Of a stretch of 64,000 bases of DNA, positions 18,874 through 28,129 are shown one piece after another. The notes under the pieces were generated by a model. The model ran no database searches and had not been told where the DNA came from. It worked only from the letters and a program-made list of their open reading frames with translations. How positions within the stretch are numbered: the stretch's first letter is position 1; every line of letters begins with the position of its first letter. Source of the stretch: Alphaproteobacteria bacterium (GTDB taxonomy: Bacteria; Pseudomonadota; Alphaproteobacteria; Bin95); assembly GCA_963665325.3 (NCBI GenBank), contig OZ224045.1, positions 1,632,001 through 1,696,000 of the forward strand, written 5' to 3'. The position numbers were made by a program, and so were the translations under genes.

Positions 18874-19437
18874 TCAGAGCGGCTCTATTTCCCTTGCCTG
18901 GAGCCCGCGCGGCACGCTTTCGGCTCGGACGAAGACGCGTTGTCCCGGCAGCAGATCGGTCATGCCCGAGCGAAACAGGACGCTGGAATGAACGAACACC
19001 TCGGGGCCGCCATCGTCCGGCACGACAAAGCCGAACCCTCTCGCCGGATCGTAGAACTTGACCGAGCCTGGCGCCTCCACGTCTGCCCGCGGCGGATCAT
19101 CAACCAGCGGGCCCGGGTGCCGGGCTTCGAACGAGCGGTTGCCGACCGCCGGGCCCCCAAATCGGAGTCCGGTGCGAGCGGACCCGGCCGCCGGCGGGTC
19201 AACCGAGAGGATCCTCGACGCCTGGGGTCCCCTGTCGCCCGGTGCGATCTCGCAGGTTACCGCCGCGCCCTGGGGCTGCGTGTCATATCCCGATGCCTGT
19301 ACGGCAGTCAGGTGGCAGAACAGGTCGGCAGAGCCGTCCTCGGGTTCCAGGAAGCCGTAACCCTTTGCCGGATCGTACAATTTGACCGTCGCCGAAATGT
19401 GCGTGCCGGTGCCGGATTCTGAAAACCGGTTCGTCAT
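18874..19437 (-). CDS. Cold-shock protein with two CSD domains
   Basis: Two RNP1/RNP2 sets: KGYGFL...LFCH and RGFGFV...VFVH. Confidence 0.9.
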   Translation of the reverse strand: MTNRFSESGTGTHISATVKLYDPAKGYGFLEPEDGSADLFCHLTAVQASGYDTQPQGAAVTCEIAPGDRGPQASRILSVDPPAAGSARTGLRFGGPAVGNRSFEARHPGPLVDDPPRADVEAPGSVKFYDPARGFGFVVPDDGGPEVFVHSSVLFRSGMTDLLPGQRVFVRAESVPRGLQAREIEPL

Positions 19438-19581
19438 CCCGAATAACTTTCCCTCATACGGTTATGTTCGTATGGATTGCCTCTTCTACCGTCCATCCCG
19501 TGGGCGGTGAAGGTCCCCGGGCAAGCGCCGGTGGACGGGGTTCATCGATACTCGAGACCGGTTGTCCAGACGGCGAGGGAG

Positions 19582-20475
19582 ATGACGATGCGTGTTGCCG
19601 GGTATTGGTCGCTGGCATTTCTGATGCTGTTGCTGGCGCCGGCGGCAGCGGTCGCCGGCGACCTGCACATTGCGGCCTGGAACCTGGAGCATCTGGACGA
19701 TACCGACGGCGAAGGGTGTGTCGGGCGCAGCAGCACCGACTACGCCGCGCTCGCAAGACAGATTGAGGAACTGGGCGCCGATATCGTCGCTTTCCAGGAG
19801 GTGGAGGACGAGGCGGCCGCGCGCCGCGTGTTCCCGGCCTCTGAATGGCACATCGAGATGTCCGGGCGCCCGCCGATGGAGCCCAGCCGGGCCTGCTGGG
19901 GCAAGCCTGAGGCGCGTCTCGGGCATCTGGCGACGGGGTTCGCGATCCGGAAGGGCATTCGTTATCGGCGCAACGCCGATCTGAAGGTGCTGGGAGGCGA
20001 GGACGCTTTCCAGCGCTGGGGTGTCGACATCGCAGCGGGCGCCGGTGGGGAGGAGCTGCGCCTGCTGTCCGTGCATCTCAAGACCGGCTGTTGGGGCAGG
20101 AAACAGGACCGGGACAACAGAAGCAGGAAAGCCTGCGCGACGCTCCGGGGCCAGATCGAGAGCCTCAGGGCCTGGGTCGACGCCCGCCGGGCCGAGGAGG
20201 CAGCTTTCGTCATCCTGGGCGACTTCAACCGCCGTCTGGCATTGCCGGAGGACTGGGCCTGGCGTCTGTTGTCTCCGCCATCGGCGCCGCTTCTGCTGCT
20301 GACCGAAGGTGTGCCGTTCCGTTGCGACCCACGTTTCCCGGCCTTCATCGACCACATTGTGGAAGGCGGCGGTGCGGAGGCGATGCGGGTGGCGGGCTCG
20401 TTCCGGGAATGGCCGCGCGGGGGGCCGCACCCGGATCACTGCGCCGTGTCTGCGGTCTTCAGGGTAGGACCATAG
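19582..20475 (+). CDS. Secreted endonuclease/exonuclease/phosphatase (EEP) family protein
   Basis: Signal peptide, AAWNLEHL, AFQEV, VHLKTGC, ILGDFN, IDH and PDHC. Confidence 0.88.
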   Translation: MTMRVAGYWSLAFLMLLLAPAAAVAGDLHIAAWNLEHLDDTDGEGCVGRSSTDYAALARQIEELGADIVAFQEVEDEAAARRVFPASEWHIEMSGRPPMEPSRACWGKPEARLGHLATGFAIRKGIRYRRNADLKVLGGEDAFQRWGVDIAAGAGGEELRLLSVHLKTGCWGRKQDRDNRSRKACATLRGQIESLRAWVDARRAEEAAFVILGDFNRRLALPEDWAWRLLSPPSAPLLLLTEGVPFRCDPRFPAFIDHIVEGGGAEAMRVAGSFREWPRGGPHPDHCAVSAVFRVGP

Positions 20476-20789
20476 GGCACTGCCGGCGAGTTGCGACAGG
20501 CTGAACTGCTGCCCGACCTGCGGCTTCCTGTGACTGCTGAGAGTGGCGGTCAGCTCTCCAGCGGGAGATGGCTGTCTCCTGTTCCGGCTCCCGGTCGAGC
20601 TCAATCGACACGCGGGGCGCAGACGACCGCACATCCCGGGATGGTTCCGGACGCCTGCGGCGCGGTGCCCGGGGCTCGATACCTGCCCGGCAACTACCGA
20701 GAAGGCAGGCTCCGGGTCCGATGCATCGCTCTTGCGGCCATCGCCCGTTGGCGCTCGCGCCGCATACGGTCTTCAGTTGGCGCTGCCAG

Positions 20790-20993
20790 CATCTGGAGCC
20801 GGCAAAGCTACTGCCGACGCCAGCGGATACCGAAACGTCTCCCTCCAGGCGGATCCGAATTGCGCTTGCGGACGGCTCGCGTGTGACGGTCGACCGGGAC
20901 GTGGACGCGGCGGTGCTGTCGCAGGTGCTCGGGGTTCTGGAGCGGCGATGATCCCGGTTCCGAGCGGGGCGCGGGTCTGGCTCGCAACCGGAG
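20790..20993 (+). mobile_element. IS66 remnant (tnpA 3' end / tnpB 5' end)
   Basis: IALADGSRVTVDRDVDAAVLSQVLGVLERR* overlapping (ATGA at 20948) MIPVPSGARVWLATG. Confidence 0.8.
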
Positions 20994-20994
20994 T

Positions 20995-21097
20995 AGCGGA
21001 GTGGAGCTGGGCAGCCGACTAGGCATGATAATCGCCTCCGGGATGGGCGGCCGGAATCCAAGACTGCTGTGGAGGCGCACGGCGTTGTAATGGCGCC
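20995..21097 (-). mobile_element. IS3-family transposase 3' remnant
   Basis: HYNAVRLHSSLGFRPPIPEA matches the IS3 C-terminal YNxxRxHSSLGYxxP motif. Confidence 0.7.
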
Positions 21098-21367
21098 CCT
21101 GACGGTGCATGCTAGACCGCTATAAGCGAGTTGACTCAGGATTAGATTCTTGGGTTTCACGGGTAAGGATTTGTCGGAATCATGAGACGTCGACGACTCG
21201 TAGAGACGCAATCGGCCCGTGAGGGAGTGGGCCCCAAATTTCCGACATCGTCATCTGGGAATGCTCTAACGGGCTACGCAAGGTCATGACCGTCCAGATA
21301 ATGAGACAAAGGCAGTGCCTATATTCGTTGATGTAAGTCAAATGGTTGCGAGTCAGAGGTTATACAA

Positions 21368-21802
21368 ATGGTAAACAAATTGTTTAAGTTATTGTCGCAA
21401 GTAAAGTCAGTCACTGGAGATGATTTTTCGGGCTTAGGATTGATCATTTGTGACACACCGGAATTCCTCCCTATTGTGCCAATACGCCCCGTGAGCTCTC
21501 CGCCAAGTAAGTTCAATCTAATTGATTCACTCGTCAGTATCTCGACCTTGGACAGTGAATATCATGATGGCTTCCATATACTATCATCCGACTGGACATT
21601 GAGCCGAATATCTCAATACTTTTTGCCACCGATTGTCAATGGTGTAATTGTTGATCGGAGTAAGACCTTTGGTGGTCGCTATATTGCAGCACTGTTCGGA
21701 TCGGCAATACCAAACGTGCGACTGTCAGGAATAGCAAGTAAAGGGTTCGGAATCGCGATCTTTAAGGACGGCGCAGAAACATATTTCCAGGATGCACTAT
21801 GA
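21368..21802 (+). CDS. Stand-alone diadenylate cyclase (DAC/DisA_N)-fold protein with divergent active site
   Basis: GLGLII...EYHDGFHIL...ISQYFLPP...FGGRYIAALFGS...IASKGFGIAIFKDG aligns by eye with the DAC consensus GALIV...LHDGAVII...AxCxLP...LGTRHRAALGIS...VVSEETGxISIAxNG. GAGG RBS; AT-rich. Confidence 0.75.
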   Translation: MVNKLFKLLSQVKSVTGDDFSGLGLIICDTPEFLPIVPIRPVSSPPSKFNLIDSLVSISTLDSEYHDGFHILSSDWTLSRISQYFLPPIVNGVIVDRSKTFGGRYIAALFGSAIPNVRLSGIASKGFGIAIFKDGAETYFQDAL

Positions 21803-22401
21803 TTGGACTTGTACCAATAGGCCGATTTATTGCGCTTGTCGCGGTGTTGTATGCTGTATTAATTTCTGGTTTTGTAGCCGCAGCAGTCGAGTTCGGAGAT
21901 GATTCATGGTCGATTTGGATCAATTTCACATATATATTCTCCGGGGCCACATTACTCCAAATTCTGCTCGCGCTGTCGTTTTGTTATGGTTGGAGGCACT
22001 TGTGGCGATGGTTTCCGACTCTAAATCATTTACTATACCCGGACCTGGGCGGAGAGTGGGACATCAGAATTCATTGGCAAAGCTCTACGGACGATGGGAC
22101 TATCGATGCAAGAGCAGTGGTCCGGCAGAATTTCTTGCAAGTAAGTATGGAGGTATTGTCTGAGAATTCTGATTCAAAGACTCTGATCGCACAGCCCAGA
22201 AAAGATCCGGAATCTGGAACCCCATTCTTGTACTATGTATACCAAGTAAATCCAAAATTCATTGGACCAGAACACAACGAACCTTACTTTGGGGCTGCAA
22301 TCTTGAAGTATTCTCAAGTTGAAGAAGGGGGAAATTTGAGTGGAAATTATTGGACAACTAGAGCGACTAGAGGCCACTTTAACCTAAGGCGTCAAACATA
22401 G
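21799..22401 (+). CDS. Cap15-like 2TM + beta-barrel (S-2TM-beta) nucleotide-sensing membrane effector
   Basis: Two N-terminal TM helices, WRHLWRW..PDLGGEW, VRQ..VSM, SxS, LYYVYQVNP, GAAIL and LSGNYWT.R..G; ATGA overlap with the DAC-like gene. Confidence 0.85.
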   Translation: MIGLVPIGRFIALVAVLYAVLISGFVAAAVEFGDDSWSIWINFTYIFSGATLLQILLALSFCYGWRHLWRWFPTLNHLLYPDLGGEWDIRIHWQSSTDDGTIDARAVVRQNFLQVSMEVLSENSDSKTLIAQPRKDPESGTPFLYYVYQVNPKFIGPEHNEPYFGAAILKYSQVEEGGNLSGNYWTTRATRGHFNLRRQT

Positions 22402-22435
22402 AAATGTTGGACAGGCGGTATTCGCTGACCGCGGC

Positions 22436-23302
22436 TTACCTGCGGAAACGCGGTGTCCAGCGCTCCTCCATATCCTCATCTTCCTCGTCAGGTTCATCGT
22501 CGGCAAATGCGCTCGAAGAAAGTACCGTTAGCGTCTTGCCGTATCGTCCGAGGCCAATCGTCTCCTCGGTGCCCGGCAGGGAACGAGGACCGCCGAACCA
22601 GTCACGAAGATCGACGTCCACATGGCTGCGGTGGGCTCGAAGGATATTTTCGGGATTACGATTGAAGAGAGCGGTCTCAATGCCGGCCGGCAACGGCTGC
22701 CCCTTGCGGAGCCATTCAAGGCCGCTGATGTCCTGAAGGCTCTTGGACATGAAGCAGTAGTCGACCGAATCGCCGGTGCTTACTACGACGGCGACCGGCA
22801 CCGAGGCTGTTTCGGCATATCGGATCGCCGTGGCGGTCAGCGAGGTGCAGCACTCGCGCGCCATGCCTTCGACCGCTTCGAGCCCGTCGCCGAAGCGACG
22901 GACTCTTCGGGAAAAGTGGGGATCGGGCATCAGCAAGCCCGCGGCAAAATGATCGGCTTCCAGTTCGAAGCGATCGCCGGAAACGAAGCCGGCTTCGGAT
23001 GCATGAACTCCATCGCCGGACGGGAAGATGTGATCGACATGGCCGTCCAGCACGTAGTGACCGATCTCGTGGGCAATACTGAACCTCTGAAAGCCTTCAT
23101 TGTCGATGTGGGTGGCGTACATGATCCCGAACATGTCCTGATGGCGGACCAGCATGCCGGAAACACCACCCGCCGTGTCCGGCTTGGGCTCCACGACGAT
23201 GTCGAGGCTCTCGGCGATCATGATCGGATCGACGGGGAGGCTGGCGATGCCCCGGTCGGCGAGGAACTTCTCTGCCTTACGCTTTGCCATTTGGTATCGC
23301 AT
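22436..23302 (-). CDS. ImmA/IrrE-family Zn metallopeptidase (CapP-like)
   Basis: LPVDP, RFSIAHEIGH (HExxH), E.EADHFAAGLLMP and SLTATAIRY; downstream of an XRE gene and divergent from CBASS. Confidence 0.88.
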   Translation of the reverse strand: MRYQMAKRKAEKFLADRGIASLPVDPIMIAESLDIVVEPKPDTAGGVSGMLVRHQDMFGIMYATHIDNEGFQRFSIAHEIGHYVLDGHVDHIFPSGDGVHASEAGFVSGDRFELEADHFAAGLLMPDPHFSRRVRRFGDGLEAVEGMARECCTSLTATAIRYAETASVPVAVVVSTGDSVDYCFMSKSLQDISGLEWLRKGQPLPAGIETALFNRNPENILRAHRSHVDVDLRDWFGGPRSLPGTEETIGLGRYGKTLTVLSSSAFADDEPDEEDEDMEERWTPRFRR

Positions 23303-23314
23303 AGGCCTGACCGT

Positions 23315-23671
23315 TCACGCACCCTCTCCGCCACGCTTCTTGCGGTCGGAGAGCATCTTCATGAAAGAGTGGGCGAGATCGCGATCCGAGGAAGACAGGT
23401 TCTTGAAGTCCCGGTAGAGCGGATCGGCGTCGGCATAGGCTTCCGGATCGTCAACACGGCCCAGCAAGTAATCGGTCGTCACCTCCAGGGCGTTGGCGAG
23501 TCGGCGCAGGTTCTCGAAGGAAGGCTTACGGGAGCTGGCTTCGAAATGCGAGATCGAGGACGGGGGCAGGCCCGACTTCTCCGCCAAGGCTGACTGGTCC
23601 AATCCCCGCATCTCACGCGCGATCCTCAGCCTTTGAGGGAAGGCATCCGAGGGGATCGGATCCTCGGACAT
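23315..23671 (-). CDS. XRE-family HTH regulator (CapH-like)
   Basis: RLRIAREMRGLDQSALAEKSGLPPSSISHFEASSRKPS...VTTDYLLG; start at ATG 23671. Confidence 0.9.
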   Translation of the reverse strand: MSEDPIPSDAFPQRLRIAREMRGLDQSALAEKSGLPPSSISHFEASSRKPSFENLRRLANALEVTTDYLLGRVDDPEAYADADPLYRDFKNLSSSDRDLAHSFMKMLSDRKKRGGEGA

Positions 23672-23737
23672 GTCGATTTCACGATCTGTCACTTGACGTT
23701 CTCGCCATCCAAGTCCATGTATATTCCGACACAGTTT

Positions 23738-23757
23738 GCATGGCGAAGTCGCCATGC
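23738..23757. promoter_or_regulatory. Palindromic candidate operator in the capH/CD-NTase divergent promoter
   Basis: GCATGGCGA-AG-TCGCCATGC with perfect 9-bp arms; a further half-site TCGCCATCC at 23702. Confidence 0.55.
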
Positions 23758-23822
23758 GCAACTCATGGTGCTGCCCGGCGTTTAGGAGCAGGACTGGACC
23801 GGGTGCGGAGAAGGATAGCGGA

Positions 23823-25082
23823 ATGACAAGCAAGAACTATCCACTGCAACAGCCACTAGCCGATCCGGTGGACCTGTTGCTTGCCGACGTAGCGATCAGG
23901 GTGCAGCTGTCCCGGACCAATTACAGCAAGGCAATCGAACGGTACGAGACGATTAATGCCTGGATCGAACGCGACGGAAGTCCGCTGAAGGACCGGATTG
24001 TGCGGTTCTACCCCCAGGGTTCGATGGCGATCGGGGCGACGATCGCTTCGAAGCTGCGGACCGACGAGTTCGATATCGATGTCGTCGCACAGCTTGGTCT
24101 GCCGCTGAGCGTGTTGCCGAAAGACGCCTTGGATCTTTTGTTCCAGGCAATCCGAGGGGAACCGGGGTCGCGCTATTACCGGATGGTGGAACGTCGGACG
24201 CGGTGTGTCACGGTGCACTACGGAAACGATATGCATGTCGACGTGACGCCGGTGCTGCGCATGCTCGGTACGGCGGCGAGGCAAAGCCTGATCTTCCATC
24301 ACAATGAAGAATCGCCGCAGGATCCGGGGGATCGGTTGATCGCGAATCCCTACGGATTTGCTGAGTGGTTCAAGCTGAACACGCCGAACGACCAAGCCTT
24401 CGCCGAAATCTTCGAACAACGGGCTTGGGAGTACGAGGAAGCGTTGCGCATCCTTGCGGAGAAGGCCGAGAGCGAGCCTGTGCCTTCGCAGGAACCGGCG
24501 TTCCGGAAATCCAAGGCGGTCATCGTGCTGCAGCTTCTGAAGCGCTGGCGCAACGTTCAGTATGACGCGCGGTTGGGGCGCAAGCCTCCGTCGATCATGT
24601 TCGCCAAGCTGATCGCGGATGCGGCGAACCATACGGACGGGCTCTCGAAAGAACTGCTCCACCAGGCTCGGCACATGCTGGACGAGTTCCGCCGTTGCCA
24701 GGAGCTGGGGCGCCTCGTCCACATCGCCAACCCCGTTTGCGCCGAAGATGTTCTGACCGACCGGTGGCCAGGTAGCCTGCGTGACCAGGCAATCTTCATT
24801 GGCGACCTCGAGCACTTGGTCCGGCAGATCGAGCGCCTGATCGAGGGGTGCGACTTGGACGAAATGCAGAAAATAATGGCCGAGCTGTTCGGCGAGGCGC
24901 CGACGGGAGAAGCCTTCCGGAGCTTCAACGAGAAGGTCGGCGGCATGGTGCGGGAAGGCCAGAGTCGGCATCGCACCGGCACGGGCGGGCTGGTCTTGCC
25001 GGGTGCTGCTGCGGTCGTCGCGACGCCGTCTTTGGCGACGCCCAGGCACACGTTCTTCGGTGCGGACGACGACGACCGATGA
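23823..25082 (+). CDS. CBASS cGAS/DncV-like nucleotidyltransferase (CD-NTase)
   Basis: YPQGSMAIGAT...EFDIDVV, MHVDVTP, ANPYGFAEWF, QLLKRWRN, PPSI, IANPV and a C-terminal HTFFG followed by ADDDDR. Confidence 0.9.
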   Translation: MTSKNYPLQQPLADPVDLLLADVAIRVQLSRTNYSKAIERYETINAWIERDGSPLKDRIVRFYPQGSMAIGATIASKLRTDEFDIDVVAQLGLPLSVLPKDALDLLFQAIRGEPGSRYYRMVERRTRCVTVHYGNDMHVDVTPVLRMLGTAARQSLIFHHNEESPQDPGDRLIANPYGFAEWFKLNTPNDQAFAEIFEQRAWEYEEALRILAEKAESEPVPSQEPAFRKSKAVIVLQLLKRWRNVQYDARLGRKPPSIMFAKLIADAANHTDGLSKELLHQARHMLDEFRRCQELGRLVHIANPVCAEDVLTDRWPGSLRDQAIFIGDLEHLVRQIERLIEGCDLDEMQKIMAELFGEAPTGEAFRSFNEKVGGMVREGQSRHRTGTGGLVLPGAAAVVATPSLATPRHTFFGADDDDR

Positions 25083-25537
25083 CCCTGTCGATACGGGCAC
25101 AGATGGACCGGATGGGCCGAGCCTGGCCGGATTTCAGGGTTCTTGGCGCGACGGATTGGTTGGCGACCTGGGAAGGGTCGCTCCGGCCGCTGGCCATGCG
25201 CTACAGGGTGCGCGTATCGATGTGTTTCGGCAGGCAATTGAGCAATGCGGTGATCAGGAGTTATGCGCCCCGGATCACGGTGGTCTCTCCAATCCTGCGC
25301 CGGCGACCGGAACAGCCGGAGCAGCCGATCCCGCACATCTACCCGAACAGGTGTTCTCCCGACCGCCCGATCCTGTGCGTCTACCTTCCTGGGGCGGGGG
25401 AATGGGATTGGCGCGATGCGGTGGCCGACACGACGATCCCTTGGACCATCGACTGGCTGGCCTGTTACGAGGGCTGGCTCGCGACGGGAGAGTGGGCGGG
25501 CGGAGGCGTTCATCCGACAAAGGAGCGGGCGGCGTGA
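25079..25537 (+). CDS. CBASS E2/UBC-like protein (short type II Cap2)
   Basis: WEGSLRP, PHIY...LCVY (catalytic Cys), TIPW..WL..YE.WLATGEW.GGG.HP; ATGA overlap with the CD-NTase. Confidence 0.85.
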   Translation: MTLSIRAQMDRMGRAWPDFRVLGATDWLATWEGSLRPLAMRYRVRVSMCFGRQLSNAVIRSYAPRITVVSPILRRRPEQPEQPIPHIYPNRCSPDRPILCVYLPGAGEWDWRDAVADTTIPWTIDWLACYEGWLATGEWAGGGVHPTKERAA

Positions 25538-26625
25538 TGCCGGCGCCGGTGGGCGAAGGGTCGCCGAGACGGTCGTCGGGGGCGCTTGATCGTCGCCGTG
25601 TTCCGCTTCCTTGGCCGGAGGATCGGCCGTTTCGCATTCTTTCAATCGACGGAGGCGGCATTCGGGGTATCTATCCCGCCGCTTTCCTGGCGGAGCTCGA
25701 ACGGCGCTACCTTGGCGGGGAATCCGTGGCGCGGCACTTCGATCTCATCGCGGGGACTTCGACCGGCGGGATCCTCGCCGTGGGCCTGGGAGCGGGCATC
25801 ACGGCCGCAGAGTTACGCGACCTCTATGTCAATCGTGGATGCGAAATCTTCCCGCCGATCAGGCCGAGAGCGCTGGAGGGGATCCTCCGACGGTGCCGGA
25901 GCGCATGCCAAGTGTTCAAGTACCGATACAACCGAAGAGCGTTGGAAGGAATTCTGAAGGAGACGCTGGGCGAACGGAAGTTCGGAGAGGCAGGGACACG
26001 CCTCTGCATTCCGTCCTTCGATGGTCGGTATGGGGAGGTTTACATCTTCAAGACACCTCATCACCCGGATTTCCGGAAAGATGGGCGTGAGTTCATGACG
26101 AAGGTGGCTGAAGCCACATCGGCGGCTCCGACATTTTTTCGGCCGCTCGAAGACGGCGGCTACACCTTCGTCGACGGCGGGGTATGGGCGAACAATCCGG
26201 TAATGATCGGCTTAGTCGACGCGTTGACCTGCTTTGCGGTCAAGGCGGAGCAGGTTCGGATTTTGAGCGTTGGATGTGGCGACGATCCCTACGTTGTCGA
26301 CCGACGCAAGATTGTGGGAGGCGGCATATGGGCGTGGCGGGACGTGATCTTCGCCGCAATGCGGCTTCAGTCGCAGAACGCCCTCGGGCAGGCGGGGCTC
26401 CTTATCGGCGCCGACAGGATCGTCCGAATCGATGCGCCGACAACCGAGGCGAAGATTGAGATGGACGACTGGAGACGCGCGGTGGACGAACTGCCCGGCG
26501 CGGCGGAAACGGCGACTGACGAAATGGGTCCCGAAGTGGCTGCAAGGTTTCTGCGCGAACCTGCGGTACCGTACAGGCCGATTAGAACAACAGACATCCA
26601 AATGGCCCCGGTTCAGAGCAGATGA
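25537..26625 (+). CDS. capV: CBASS patatin-like phospholipase effector
   Basis: ILSIDGGGIRG, GTSTG, KTPHH, TSAAPTFF and DGGVWANNP. Confidence 0.9.
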   Translation: MPAPVGEGSPRRSSGALDRRRVPLPWPEDRPFRILSIDGGGIRGIYPAAFLAELERRYLGGESVARHFDLIAGTSTGGILAVGLGAGITAAELRDLYVNRGCEIFPPIRPRALEGILRRCRSACQVFKYRYNRRALEGILKETLGERKFGEAGTRLCIPSFDGRYGEVYIFKTPHHPDFRKDGREFMTKVAEATSAAPTFFRPLEDGGYTFVDGGVWANNPVMIGLVDALTCFAVKAEQVRILSVGCGDDPYVVDRRKIVGGGIWAWRDVIFAAMRLQSQNALGQAGLLIGADRIVRIDAPTTEAKIEMDDWRRAVDELPGAAETATDEMGPEVAARFLREPAVPYRPIRTTDIQMAPVQSR

Positions 26626-27113
26626 CGAAGACTGCAATTGGGTGGCCGGGTAGTTGTCAACGGCGGAGCAAGAATGTACCGGCGCGGCGACTGGCCTCGA
26701 CCGCGCACACGGGCTAGGTGGACAAGTCCGGAGCGCCCTATATCGAACACGTGACGAGAGTGTCCCAGGCAGTCGAGATGAAGGTGGCGCCGGAACTGCG
26801 GGACCATGCCGTCACGGTCGCGTACCTGCACGACGTGGTGGAAGACACCAATGTCACGCTGGACTTCATCCGGAAAAGGTTCGGCAACGATGTTGCCGAA
26901 GACGTGGAGACGCTGACACACCGCGACCGCGAGGAGTATCCCGACTACATCAACCGCGTGGCCCGCGGCAGCGCAGCGGCCAGGGCGGTCAAGCTCGCTG
27001 ATCTGGAGGACCATCTGCGCGACACATCACACATCAGAGCCGATCAGGTGGAGAAGTACGTTCAGGCGCTGGCTGTCCTGACCGGCTCCCGCGCACCTGA
27101 TCCTGCCGGGTGA
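26622..27113 (+). pseudogene. HD-domain hydrolase (Mesh1/SpoT-like) with in-frame amber codon
   Basis: ATG 26622 overlaps the capV stop. Reads ...LASTAHTG*VDKSGAPYIEH...YLHDVVEDT...VKLAD; the TAG at 26715-26717 replaces the Gln of the AHxGQxDK motif. Confidence 0.8.
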
Positions 27114-27301: not shown

Positions 27302-28129
27302 TCAAGCGGCGGCGCGGCTAGTTCCCATCCGTGACGCGCTCCGTGCGAGGATGCGAAGGGCCGTGCGAAGCTGCTGGCCGCTGCCGGCGGCCACGCGCAC
27401 GCACACACCGCTGCCGTCACGCGTCGGCGCGATGCCTGTCCAGATGCCGTCGTCCAGCCTGTCCGCCGTCGAAGTCATGACCCCCAGTGCCCCGTCCGGG
27501 TCTTCCGACAGGACGATCACCGTGCCGAACGATGTCCATGTGCCGGGCATCTCGGCGAGCCGGGCCAGCAGTTCTCCGGTCACCTGCTGACGGTCCTCGA
27601 ACAGGACGGTGCCGTCGGGGCGCCGGACGACGACTTCGGATCTCCAGCACCGCCTGCCCGGCAAGGCCGCACAGATACCCTCGCAGGAAACCAGAGTTGA
27701 GACTCGCGGGAGCGTGATCGTCTGTCGAAGGGTCAGGTCCGCATCGTCGAACAACACGTAGGGTTCCGACAGCAGCACGGCCCGCGACCCGTGGCCCAGA
27801 TCAATCGCCCAGTCCGAAACGCTGCCCTGTCCGCCCGGCGTCCCGTAGGTCAGCATCGCACCGGCACTCTCAAGATGCAGAGCCGCGCCGTCCTCGATGC
27901 GAATGCGCTGCCCGATCCGGTCTCCTGCCAGCAAACCGGCTCCGGCAACCTGGGGGATCAACGTGACCGGCGTCCCGGGTGGTCCGGGATATCCCCGGCC
28001 CAGCGACCAGGGGAAGGAAACACGGCGGAACGCCAGGCGGCTGCGCCCGTCTGCCCCCAGGCCGATGATCAGGTCCATGGACGGCGCGCCCGGTGAGGTG
28101 GACGGGCCCGTGGCCGGCAACGCGTTCAC
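27302..28129 (-). CDS. ureD: Urease accessory protein UreD
   Basis: AGLLAGD motif; last gene of the ure cluster. Confidence 0.8.

Follow-up and report, generated by a model that had tools for sequence, protein, structure and literature searches.

Introduction

Panoptes, a type I system said to have been described in Nature in 2025, reportedly pairs an mCpol synthase, optS, with a two-transmembrane beta (2TM-beta) effector, optE; a constitutively made decoy nucleotide represses the effector, and phage sponges trigger it. Two preprints dated 11 August 2026 describe, as Panoptoo (Ragucci, Haley, Kranzusch, 10.64898/2026.08.10.743927) and as PanDA (Nabhani et al., PMC13640721), a two-gene operon of a ∼150 amino acid (aa) synthase made up of a diadenylate cyclase (DAC) domain only and an S-2TM-beta effector. 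Here we analyse a gene pair at positions 21368–22401 of a 64,000-nt stretch of DNA (the window: contig OZ224045.1, positions 1,632,001–1,696,000, assembly GCA_963665325.3; all coordinates are counted within it). The pair is very probably a Panoptoo/PanDA system (panSE), a guard against phage removal of cyclic-dinucleotide signals, standing beside the sole detectable antiphage signalling system based on cyclic oligonucleotides (CBASS) of the genome.

According to both preprints (10.64898/2026.08.10.743927; PMC13640721), the synthase PanS constitutively makes 3′3′-cyclic UMP-AMP (cUA) and/or 3′3′-cyclic di-AMP (c-di-AMP), repressing the effector PanE, which is toxic when alone; the ligand represses PanE and does not activate it. 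The sponge Acb4 sets PanE free. Triggering by phage proteins that take the dinucleotide away (Acb4, Acb2) is shown for Escherichia coli systems, and both preprints show defence against phages. About 50% of the systems that they survey have a CBASS no more than 10 genes away, which as a rule has ubiquitin-like machinery and a patatin or 2TM-beta effector.

Applied to the window, this mechanism would have PanS, a DAC dimer with no regulator, produce 3′3′-cUA and/or 3′3′-c-di-AMP continuously. The dinucleotide would sit in the beta-barrel of the membrane protein PanE and hold it off. A phage sponge (Acb4, Acb2) or nuclease aimed at the CBASS would drain the PanS signal too, and the freed PanE would permeabilise the membrane, aborting the infection. 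CapH, for its part, would silence transcription of the CBASS until single-stranded DNA (ssDNA) or DNA damage activates the peptidase CapP. Such a cell would have an inducible CBASS together with an always-on tripwire for CBASS inhibitors.

The PanS synthase

PanS matches Protein Data Bank (PDB) chain 37jy_A, ‘Panoptoo PanS synthase’, with a phmmer expectation value (E) of 7e-34, in a gap-free alignment over query residues 2–137 (136 residues). Its catalytic motifs are kept, namely H66-D67-G68-F69-H70 (HDGFH, including DGF) and G102-G103-R104 (GGR), and the catalytic D, G and R residues are conserved in 188–190 of 190 aligned distinct sequences. By the gap-free 37jy alignment, RePanS residues D71, G72, G107 and R108 are D67, G68, G103 and R104 of the window protein; EcPanS residues D68, G69, G103 and R105 correspond to D67, G68, G102/G103 and R104. 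These catalytic residues of RePanS and EcPanS were mutated in the Panoptoo (10.64898/2026.08.10.743927) and PanDA (PMC13640721) preprints. An AlphaFold2 model from a 32-row alignment has a mean predicted local distance difference test (pLDDT) score of 92.5, and a fold search with it returned only diadenylate cyclases at the top (DacM, CdaA, DisA), with 70 chains at E <= 0.001.

From its sequence, the window PanS reads as a clear member of the Panoptoo/PanDA family, with a DAC fold and no regulatory domain. A preliminary description of this DNA had proposed that the DAC pair serves as a back-up to the CBASS and, much as Panoptes does, senses anti-CBASS proteins; the match to 37jy and the mechanism in the two preprints support that proposal. 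PanS itself gave zero matches in Pfam (even at E <= 10), NCBIfam, PADLOC and PHROGs; either the recency of the family or its divergence puts it beyond the reach of these libraries.

A homologue search, covering one length class and leaving fused or split forms to the ‘longer’ and ‘shorter’ classes outside its scope, gave 196 PanS homologues at E <= 0.001; most among the 120 matches listed have 133–184 aa. Six plasmid records hold a PanS match, four of them typed conjugative, and none of 50,697 phage records does. The host genome has no match to the Pfam DAC family (PF02457), a search that was positive in 11 of 14 reference genomes used as a control; this fits the reported mutual exclusion of PanS and housekeeping DACs.

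The PanE effector and the operon

The start of panE overlaps the stop of panS by 4 nt (ATGA), making the two one operon. A Shine-Dalgarno sequence, AGAGG, lies 8 nt upstream of the panS ATG. A consensus scan of 21100–21367 found no sigma-70 match upstream of panS, whose promoter presumably lies within that stretch.

PanE matches Pfam Cap15_CD_rec (1.2e-15, residues 80–198) and the PADLOC ‘2TM effector’ (3.7e-26). In its AlphaFold2 model (30 rows, pLDDT 86.9), N-terminal helices at residues 7–32 and 39–71 are followed by an 8-stranded barrel, and the best PDB match of the model is the Cap15 receptor domain 7n34 (E 4e-06; template modelling (TM) score 0.86 by target length; root-mean-square deviation 2.1). 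The Cap15 link comes from this fold search only, as phmmer with the PanE sequence matched no chain among PDB sequences, Cap15 included. PanE is 32–61% identical to 29 effectors encoded after PanS elsewhere and keeps 22 of the 22 columns that are invariant among 30 PanS-following effectors, G182-N183-Y184 among them. It is thus modelled as two transmembrane helices with a Cap15-type nucleotide-binding barrel, that is, as a protein of the S-2TM-beta class.

The neighbouring CBASS and its control

The product of the long gene next to capH is a nucleotidyltransferase like cGAS and DncV (CD-NTase), matching PADLOC cyclase model PDLC00800 (2.5e-153), Pfam SMODS and, in phmmer, PDB entries 7ljn (5.3e-69) and SmCdnG 8hsb_A (1.6e-16). 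It is the sole SMODS match in the 5.58-Mb genome. The protein that follows matches PDB 8hsb_B ‘E2’ (phmmer E 8e-13) and no Pfam or NCBIfam family. CapV, third in the series, scores 248 against the 200-bit cut-off of NCBIfam CBASS_lipase (1e-73) and matches the PADLOC phospholipase (9e-115) and Pfam Patatin (5.6e-24). Between 25082 and 26625 there is no frame of E1 or JAB size. By these matches the module is an E2-type (type II short) CBASS with CapV, separate from panSE. The CD-NTases found in E2-CBASS are described as being of greater length and as falling mostly in clade G (Xiao et al. 2026, PMC12948482); we call the window enzyme clade-G-like on its likeness to SmCdnG and on that paper, not on a tree.

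Divergent from the CBASS core genes lies the capH/capP pair. CapP matches PADLOC capP (2.2e-63, over 241 of 242 profile positions) and Pfam Peptidase_M78 (1.3e-12) and has the HEIGH motif; CapH matches PADLOC capH (1.3e-25) and Pfam HTH_3 (2e-15), and its start is probably the ATG at 23671. CapH is described as repressing the CBASS promoter until CapP, activated by ssDNA, cleaves it (Lau et al. 2022, 10.1101/2022.04.27.489752). The 151-nt divergent region contains an inverted repeat, 23702–23712/23736–23746 (10 of 11 complementary), that brackets TATATT at 23720–23725; in the light of Lau et al. 2022, 23702–23746 is a candidate CapH operator.

Separate histories of panSE and CBASS

GC content is 0.442 in panSE, 0.616 in the CBASS and 0.656 in the remaining window. 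At third codon positions it is 0.43 in both pan genes, 0.70–0.78 in the CBASS genes and the HD hydrolase gene that follows them, and 0.80–0.84 in the urease genes to their right. Overall the window runs at 0.64–0.69, with a trough at 21000–23000; in 100-nt windows, the low-GC stretch extends from ∼21100 to the panE stop, with a drop from 0.65–0.73 to 0.36–0.57, and GC climbs from 0.40 to 0.57–0.62 at the panE/capP spacer. The deficit of panSE against its surroundings is 21 points here, and in 39 comparison loci it averages 7 and reaches 19 at most.

A profile of 32 PanS sequences found no PanS in 60 of 60 relatives (16 from the genus, 20 from the family, 24 from the class). The capP–capV cassette is present without panSE in two genus relatives, G001 and G015, at 85–86% DNA identity. 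DNA likeness to these cassettes begins at ∼22395 (G015) and ∼22435 (G001) and ends just before the capV stop. The cassette has different neighbours in each: an AbiEi/AbiEii pair in G001 (L003, 3–1563), and a tyrosine integrase and a 496-aa frame in G015 (L004, 5767–6933). We considered a panE remnant in G015, where a ∼25-nt likeness lies at the panE stop, and rejected it; the 496-aa frame upstream of capP is unrelated (best E 2.9). In none of the relatives searched do the flanks to the left and right of the island adjoin each other, so that they define no empty site.

The CBASS thus reads as a mobile cassette moving within the genus. With 44% GC against 66% for the genome, with no copy found in the 60 relatives and with the CBASS shared within the genus, panSE is a recent, separate import; it came from a donor of lower GC and was placed with its last stop facing that of capP. 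The two stops are 34 nt apart (panE ends at 22401 and the capP stop codon is 22436–22438), the distance given in the preliminary description.

Public sequencing runs also contain the joined panSE–CBASS form, which is not a one-off assembly product. Contig pieces of run X4, from another study of the same organism label, show 0 differences across the panE/capP junction (22003–22651) and 1 across the HD gene. Run X6, of another organism label, has pieces ∼96–98% alike for panS, capP, capH, the CD-NTase gene, the E2 gene and the capV/HD junction. The X4 and X6 pieces are short and of low depth and are read for presence only; X5 and X6, at low depth, leave parts of the window uncovered.

Survey of PanS loci

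We collected 84 PanS loci, 4 from reference genomes with PanS alone as the query and 80 from metagenomes by an alignment-based scan. Merging at >= 97% PanS identity left 69, and 39 of those have at least 5 kb of flank. PADLOC was given 210 non-nested frames of 270–520 aa from the 39 loci, plus 30 frames for 8 loci that were blank at first.

A match to the window PanE (tblastn) directly follows PanS in 74 of the 84 loci, and 6 of the 10 others end <600 nt past PanS. The remaining four (L032, L080, L084, L085) have room after PanS and no match to the window PanE, and L032 has a 232-aa frame there instead. These four may carry other effectors, for example of the beta-barrel-PNP type that Nabhani et al. 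mention (PMC13640721).

The available flanks (up to 10 kb per side) contain a CD-NTase in 26 of the 39 non-redundant loci, in every case within ∼4 kb of panSE. This count is a minimum: for the second batch the threshold was E <= 1e-40 and its six negative loci had that one reading only, and one negative locus, L046, stops short of the site where its relative L045 has its cyclase. The best-scoring cyclase models in the 26 loci are 13 different PADLOC models, and PDLC00800, the model of the window, recurs only in L013. Effectors among these loci include patatin in 13, SAVED-2TM in 2 and 4TM in 2. In the conjugative plasmid pAt2 of Agrobacterium fabrum, genes annotated at NCBI as CBASS cGAMP synthase, ThiF, JAB and CBASS phospholipase directly precede the PanS homologue. 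Two loci have doubled parts: in L069 (1162–10538) two full capV and CD-NTase pairs flank panSE, and in L090 (3986–9883) there are two CD-NTases, both upstream of panS.

Every other defence type in the same flanks occurs in at most about 3 loci each; the parts seen are type I restriction-modification, Septu-like, dGTPase, retron, TIR, BREX, Wadjet and Gabija/AbiL-like ATPases. This comparison is a rough internal control, in which the size filter works against large proteins. The adjacency of panSE and CBASS is beyond chance, CBASS-specific and consistent with the published figures, and the co-occurrence that the preliminary description had named as a check is thus borne out. Taken together, the recent foreign landing of panSE in the window and the 13 cyclase models among the CBASS neighbours of PanS argue for repeated and independent assembly of such guard and guarded pairs.

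A tblastn search with the window proteins, which is a test of low sensitivity, matched CapH in 1 of the 84 loci (L017) and CapP in none. It seems uncommon for a guard to stand next to a CBASS silenced by CapH and CapP.

Weighing the guard reading

One residue sets the window PanS apart. At position 86 it alone among the 190 sequences has Leu (TTG, 21623–21625), where Ser is found in 188 and a gap in one; a single C-to-T change, TCG to TTG, suffices for it. In the crystal structure with cUA bound, the same Ser of RePanS, S90, moves by ∼4 Å into the pocket that takes uracil (10.64898/2026.08.10.743927). EcPanS positions 104 and 108, Gly and Ala, are tied by Nabhani et al. (PMC13640721) to room for uracil, and at these places the window protein has G103 and A107, the same as cUA makers. 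The L86 codon is fully covered by a contig of one public run only (X2), possibly the source sample.

Several points weigh against reading panSE as a guard of this CBASS. With Leu where a Ser closes on uracil, the product of this PanS copy, and even its activity, may differ. The preprints disagree on the signal: Ragucci et al. (10.64898/2026.08.10.743927) hold cUA to be primary, and Nabhani et al. (PMC13640721) report that EcPanE binds c-di-AMP, not cUA. We assume that an inhibitor of the signal of this CD-NTase would also take the PanS signal. The 13 of 39 loci with no CD-NTase in the available flank mean that the pair does not require a CBASS neighbour. At this locus the guard role is supported through family membership and context.

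PanE could instead be a second effector of the adjacent CBASS, which the product of the CD-NTase activates or activates as well, with PanS as an accessory cyclase that widens the signal; the preliminary description had offered the 2TM-beta protein as such an effector. Its receptor fold is that of Cap15, a ligand-activated CBASS effector, 73.4% of the 617 S-2TM-beta effectors surveyed by Ragucci et al. (10.64898/2026.08.10.743927) belong to CBASS, and Nabhani et al. (PMC13640721) do not settle whether shared effectors can answer two cyclases in CdaG-type operons. We find no support for it at this locus and consider it very unlikely: panE is coupled to panS by the 4-nt overlap and shares its 44% GC, as against 62% in the CBASS, which has CapV as its own effector and occurs as the same cassette in G001 and G015 without panSE. 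PanE is moreover 42–61% identical to effectors that follow PanS, its sequence matches no PDB chain in phmmer, that of Cap15 included, and in both preprints (10.64898/2026.08.10.743927; PMC13640721) PanE is toxic alone and its ligand represses rather than activates. That panSE is mainly an addiction module, resembling a toxin-antitoxin pair and stabilising the island or a mobile element, with defence and the CBASS site secondary, is likewise highly improbable in our judgement. PanE would kill on loss of the PanS product, which is the logic of an addiction pair; four of the six plasmid records with a PanS match are typed conjugative, and panSE is a recent foreign insert here. Both preprints, however, show phage defence and specific triggering by Acb4, and unspecific addiction does not predict a CBASS neighbour in 26 of 39 loci across 13 cyclase models. 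The addiction and defence roles are in any case mutually compatible.

A crippled or drifting copy, a remnant guarding nothing through S86L in PanS or an undetected defect in PanE, is hardly credible. It would account for a Leu unique among 190 sequences at a near-invariant lid residue, one C-to-T change away. Both frames are intact, though, all catalytic and invariant residues are kept, and an inactive PanS next to an intact PanE ought to kill the cell. A figure legend of Ragucci et al. (10.64898/2026.08.10.743927) moreover gives S85, the corresponding Ser of VcPanS, as dispensable for activity, and contig pieces of X4 (0–1 differences per piece) and X6 (∼96–98%) match parts of the island, panS included. 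Rather speculative, and in our view unlikely, is the idea that S86L marks a re-tuned decoy, shifted for example toward c-di-AMP or another dinucleotide, so that in panSE nature would have fitted a variant specificity to the signal of the clade-G-like E2-CBASS that it flanks; taken furthest, the idea has PanE respond to the CD-NTase product as well, and the two systems would share a signalling space. The guard reading given at the outset remains the one we favour.

Gene layout and surroundings of the island

The gene order in Table 1 is drawn from the open reading frame list and from profile searches (Pfam, PADLOC, NCBIfam); the starts of capH, the CD-NTase gene, the E2 gene and capV were picked from profile ranges and candidate start codons. 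Eight genes lie within 21368–27113: panS and panE on the plus strand, capP and capH on the minus strand, and the CD-NTase, E2, capV and HD genes on the plus strand. The preliminary description had given this layout, as a DAC and 2TM-beta pair, a peptidase and XRE pair and a CD-NTase, E2, CapV and HD series within ∼5.7 kb, and all eight genes stand at its coordinates and in its order and orientation. ATGA overlaps occur at CD-NTase/E2 as at panS/panE, and E2 and capV overlap by 1 base.

Table 1. Features of the island, with functions predicted from the evidence listed
Feature	Coordinates	Strand	Evidence
Low-GC stretch leading into the acquired panSE cassette, presumably with the promoter	21100–21367	+	GC fall, Shine-Dalgarno
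panS, minimal diadenylate cyclase, 144 aa, putative decoy-signal synthase	21368–21802	+	PDB 37jy_A match, motifs, model
panE, S-2TM-beta effector, 200 aa	21799–22401	+	Cap15_CD_rec, PADLOC 2TM effector, model
Tail-to-tail spacer panE/capP, 34 nt, junction of two modules	22402–22435	.	Sequence, GC step
capP, ssDNA-activated M78/IrrE-type peptidase, CBASS regulator	22436–23302	-	PADLOC capP, Peptidase_M78
capH, XRE-type repressor of CBASS promoter	23315–23671	-	PADLOC capH, HTH_3
Divergent capH/CD-NTase control region, candidate CapH operator	23672–23822	.	Inverted repeat
CD-NTase, 419 aa, clade-G-like, E2-CBASS type	23823–25082	+	PADLOC PDLC00800, PDB matches, SMODS
Stand-alone E2, 152 aa, regulates CD-NTase	25079–25537	+	PDB 8hsb_B match
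capV, patatin-like phospholipase, CBASS effector	25537–26625	+	NCBIfam CBASS_lipase, PADLOC, Pfam Patatin
Small stand-alone HD hydrolase, 131 aa, RelA/SpoT-hydrolase-like	26718–27113	+	Pfam HD_4, TIGR00691, phrog_990

The consensus scan for promoters and terminators found no terminator-like hairpin in the panE/capP spacer, and it gave no more sites than in shuffled sequence. Scans for tRNA genes and Rfam families around the island gave no match.

The HD protein at the right edge matches Pfam HD_4 (3e-07), the N-terminal part of TIGR00691 spoT_relA (4.4e-12) and phrog_990 ‘metal-dependent phosphohydrolase’ (3.1e-30), and so resembles the hydrolase half of RelA/SpoT and phosphohydrolases of phages. 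One of 30 relatives (G008) has a stand-alone homologue, at 48% identity; the other matches are SpoT/RelA genes of 700–800 aa. No match to it occurs in the 84 PanS loci. Its gene travels with the island, as contigs of X4 and X6 connect it to capV. The protein could be a small hydrolase of alarmones or nucleotides that acts in signalling or counters it. Between capV and this gene, at 26650–26690, lies a 30–40-nt element that recurs widely in relatives at 94–97% identity (on 5 contigs in G004 alone) and at which contig depth is raised too; it looks like an intergenic repeat of the repetitive extragenic palindromic type.

To the right of the island follows a minus-strand urease operon (ureD, 27302–28129, onward), and on the left side are an Exo_endo_phos gene and one encoding a cold-shock domain. 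The region of the Exo_endo_phos gene, 19400–20512, has a second copy at 88% DNA identity on the same contig (G000:C1:1115023–1116134). Just left of the low-GC panSE insert, a ∼206-nt stretch (20795–21000) is repeated across the genus at 82–88% identity, in several places in most genus genomes and up to 5 in one, with 3 weaker copies in its own genome. Contig depth there is several-fold above the surroundings, and its frames have no Pfam match and the stretch no Rfam match.

We tried an imperfect inverted repeat, 21229–21257/26619–26647 (22 of 29 complementary), as the ends of a transposable unit around panS–capV; an equal or better repeat appeared in 4 of 60 shuffles, and it is probably due to chance. 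Contigs of three runs join 26240–26261 to 21032–21052 with two letters between, at depths up to 140. These joins probably reflect a short repeat elsewhere in the genome that resembles both places.

Comparison with known systems

From raw sequence alone, the preliminary description reached the guard logic that two laboratories published in August 2026; this is of use for calibration and is no discovery. PanS is overlooked by PADLOC 2.0.0, Pfam and NCBIfam, for which PanE is a CBASS 2TM effector at most, so such loci would go on record as a CBASS with an orphan Cap15 next to it. The locus also shows that the pairing can arise by the landing of a very recent, foreign panSE against a resident CBASS cassette, and the CapH/CapP-silenced CBASS beside panSE suggests that labour is divided between a tripwire that is always on and a main system that can be induced.

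The CBASS resembles the CdnG-E2 system of Serratia marcescens (8hsb) in having a long CD-NTase followed by a stand-alone E2, with overlapping genes; it differs in that the window proteins are distant (∼1e-16 and ∼1e-13 in phmmer) and in its CapV effector and CapH/CapP regulator. That regulator is like the CapH/CapP described by Lau et al. 2022 (10.1101/2022.04.27.489752), a helix-turn-helix repressor and an M78 peptidase divergent from the CBASS, with no difference seen from what that source describes. CBASS of the DS-2/CdaG type likewise have a DAC-domain protein alongside a CD-NTase and a 2TM-beta protein, but theirs, as described, has ∼550–575 aa with DACNG and DACNH domains and is encoded inside the CBASS operon, whereas the window PanS has 144 aa and its own operon.

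With Panoptes the pair shares the inverted repression logic, the sponge trigger and the habit of adjoining CBASS. The window synthase has, by its model, a DAC fold and not the mCpol palm fold (no Pfam match at E <= 10; only DACs among the top folds), and Ragucci et al. (10.64898/2026.08.10.743927) contrast the 3′3′ linkages of Panoptoo with the 2′3′-c-di-AMP of Panoptes. On sequence and model, the window panSE is a sister system of Panoptes, not a member.

The likeness to Panoptoo/PanDA extends to a minimal DAC that has the motifs DGF/GGR and HDGFH, an effector of the S-2TM-beta class encoded immediately downstream, an adjoining CBASS with patatin and ubiquitin-like machinery, GC below that of the host and a genome without a housekeeping DAC. 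The differences are the Leu at the near-invariant lid Ser (RePanS S90), a GC deficit of 21 points against a largest value of 19 in the 39 comparison loci, and the control of the guarded CBASS by CapH/CapP. With these, the locus is an ordinary, intact-looking member of Panoptoo/PanDA, a system in print since August 2026, in its most common company.

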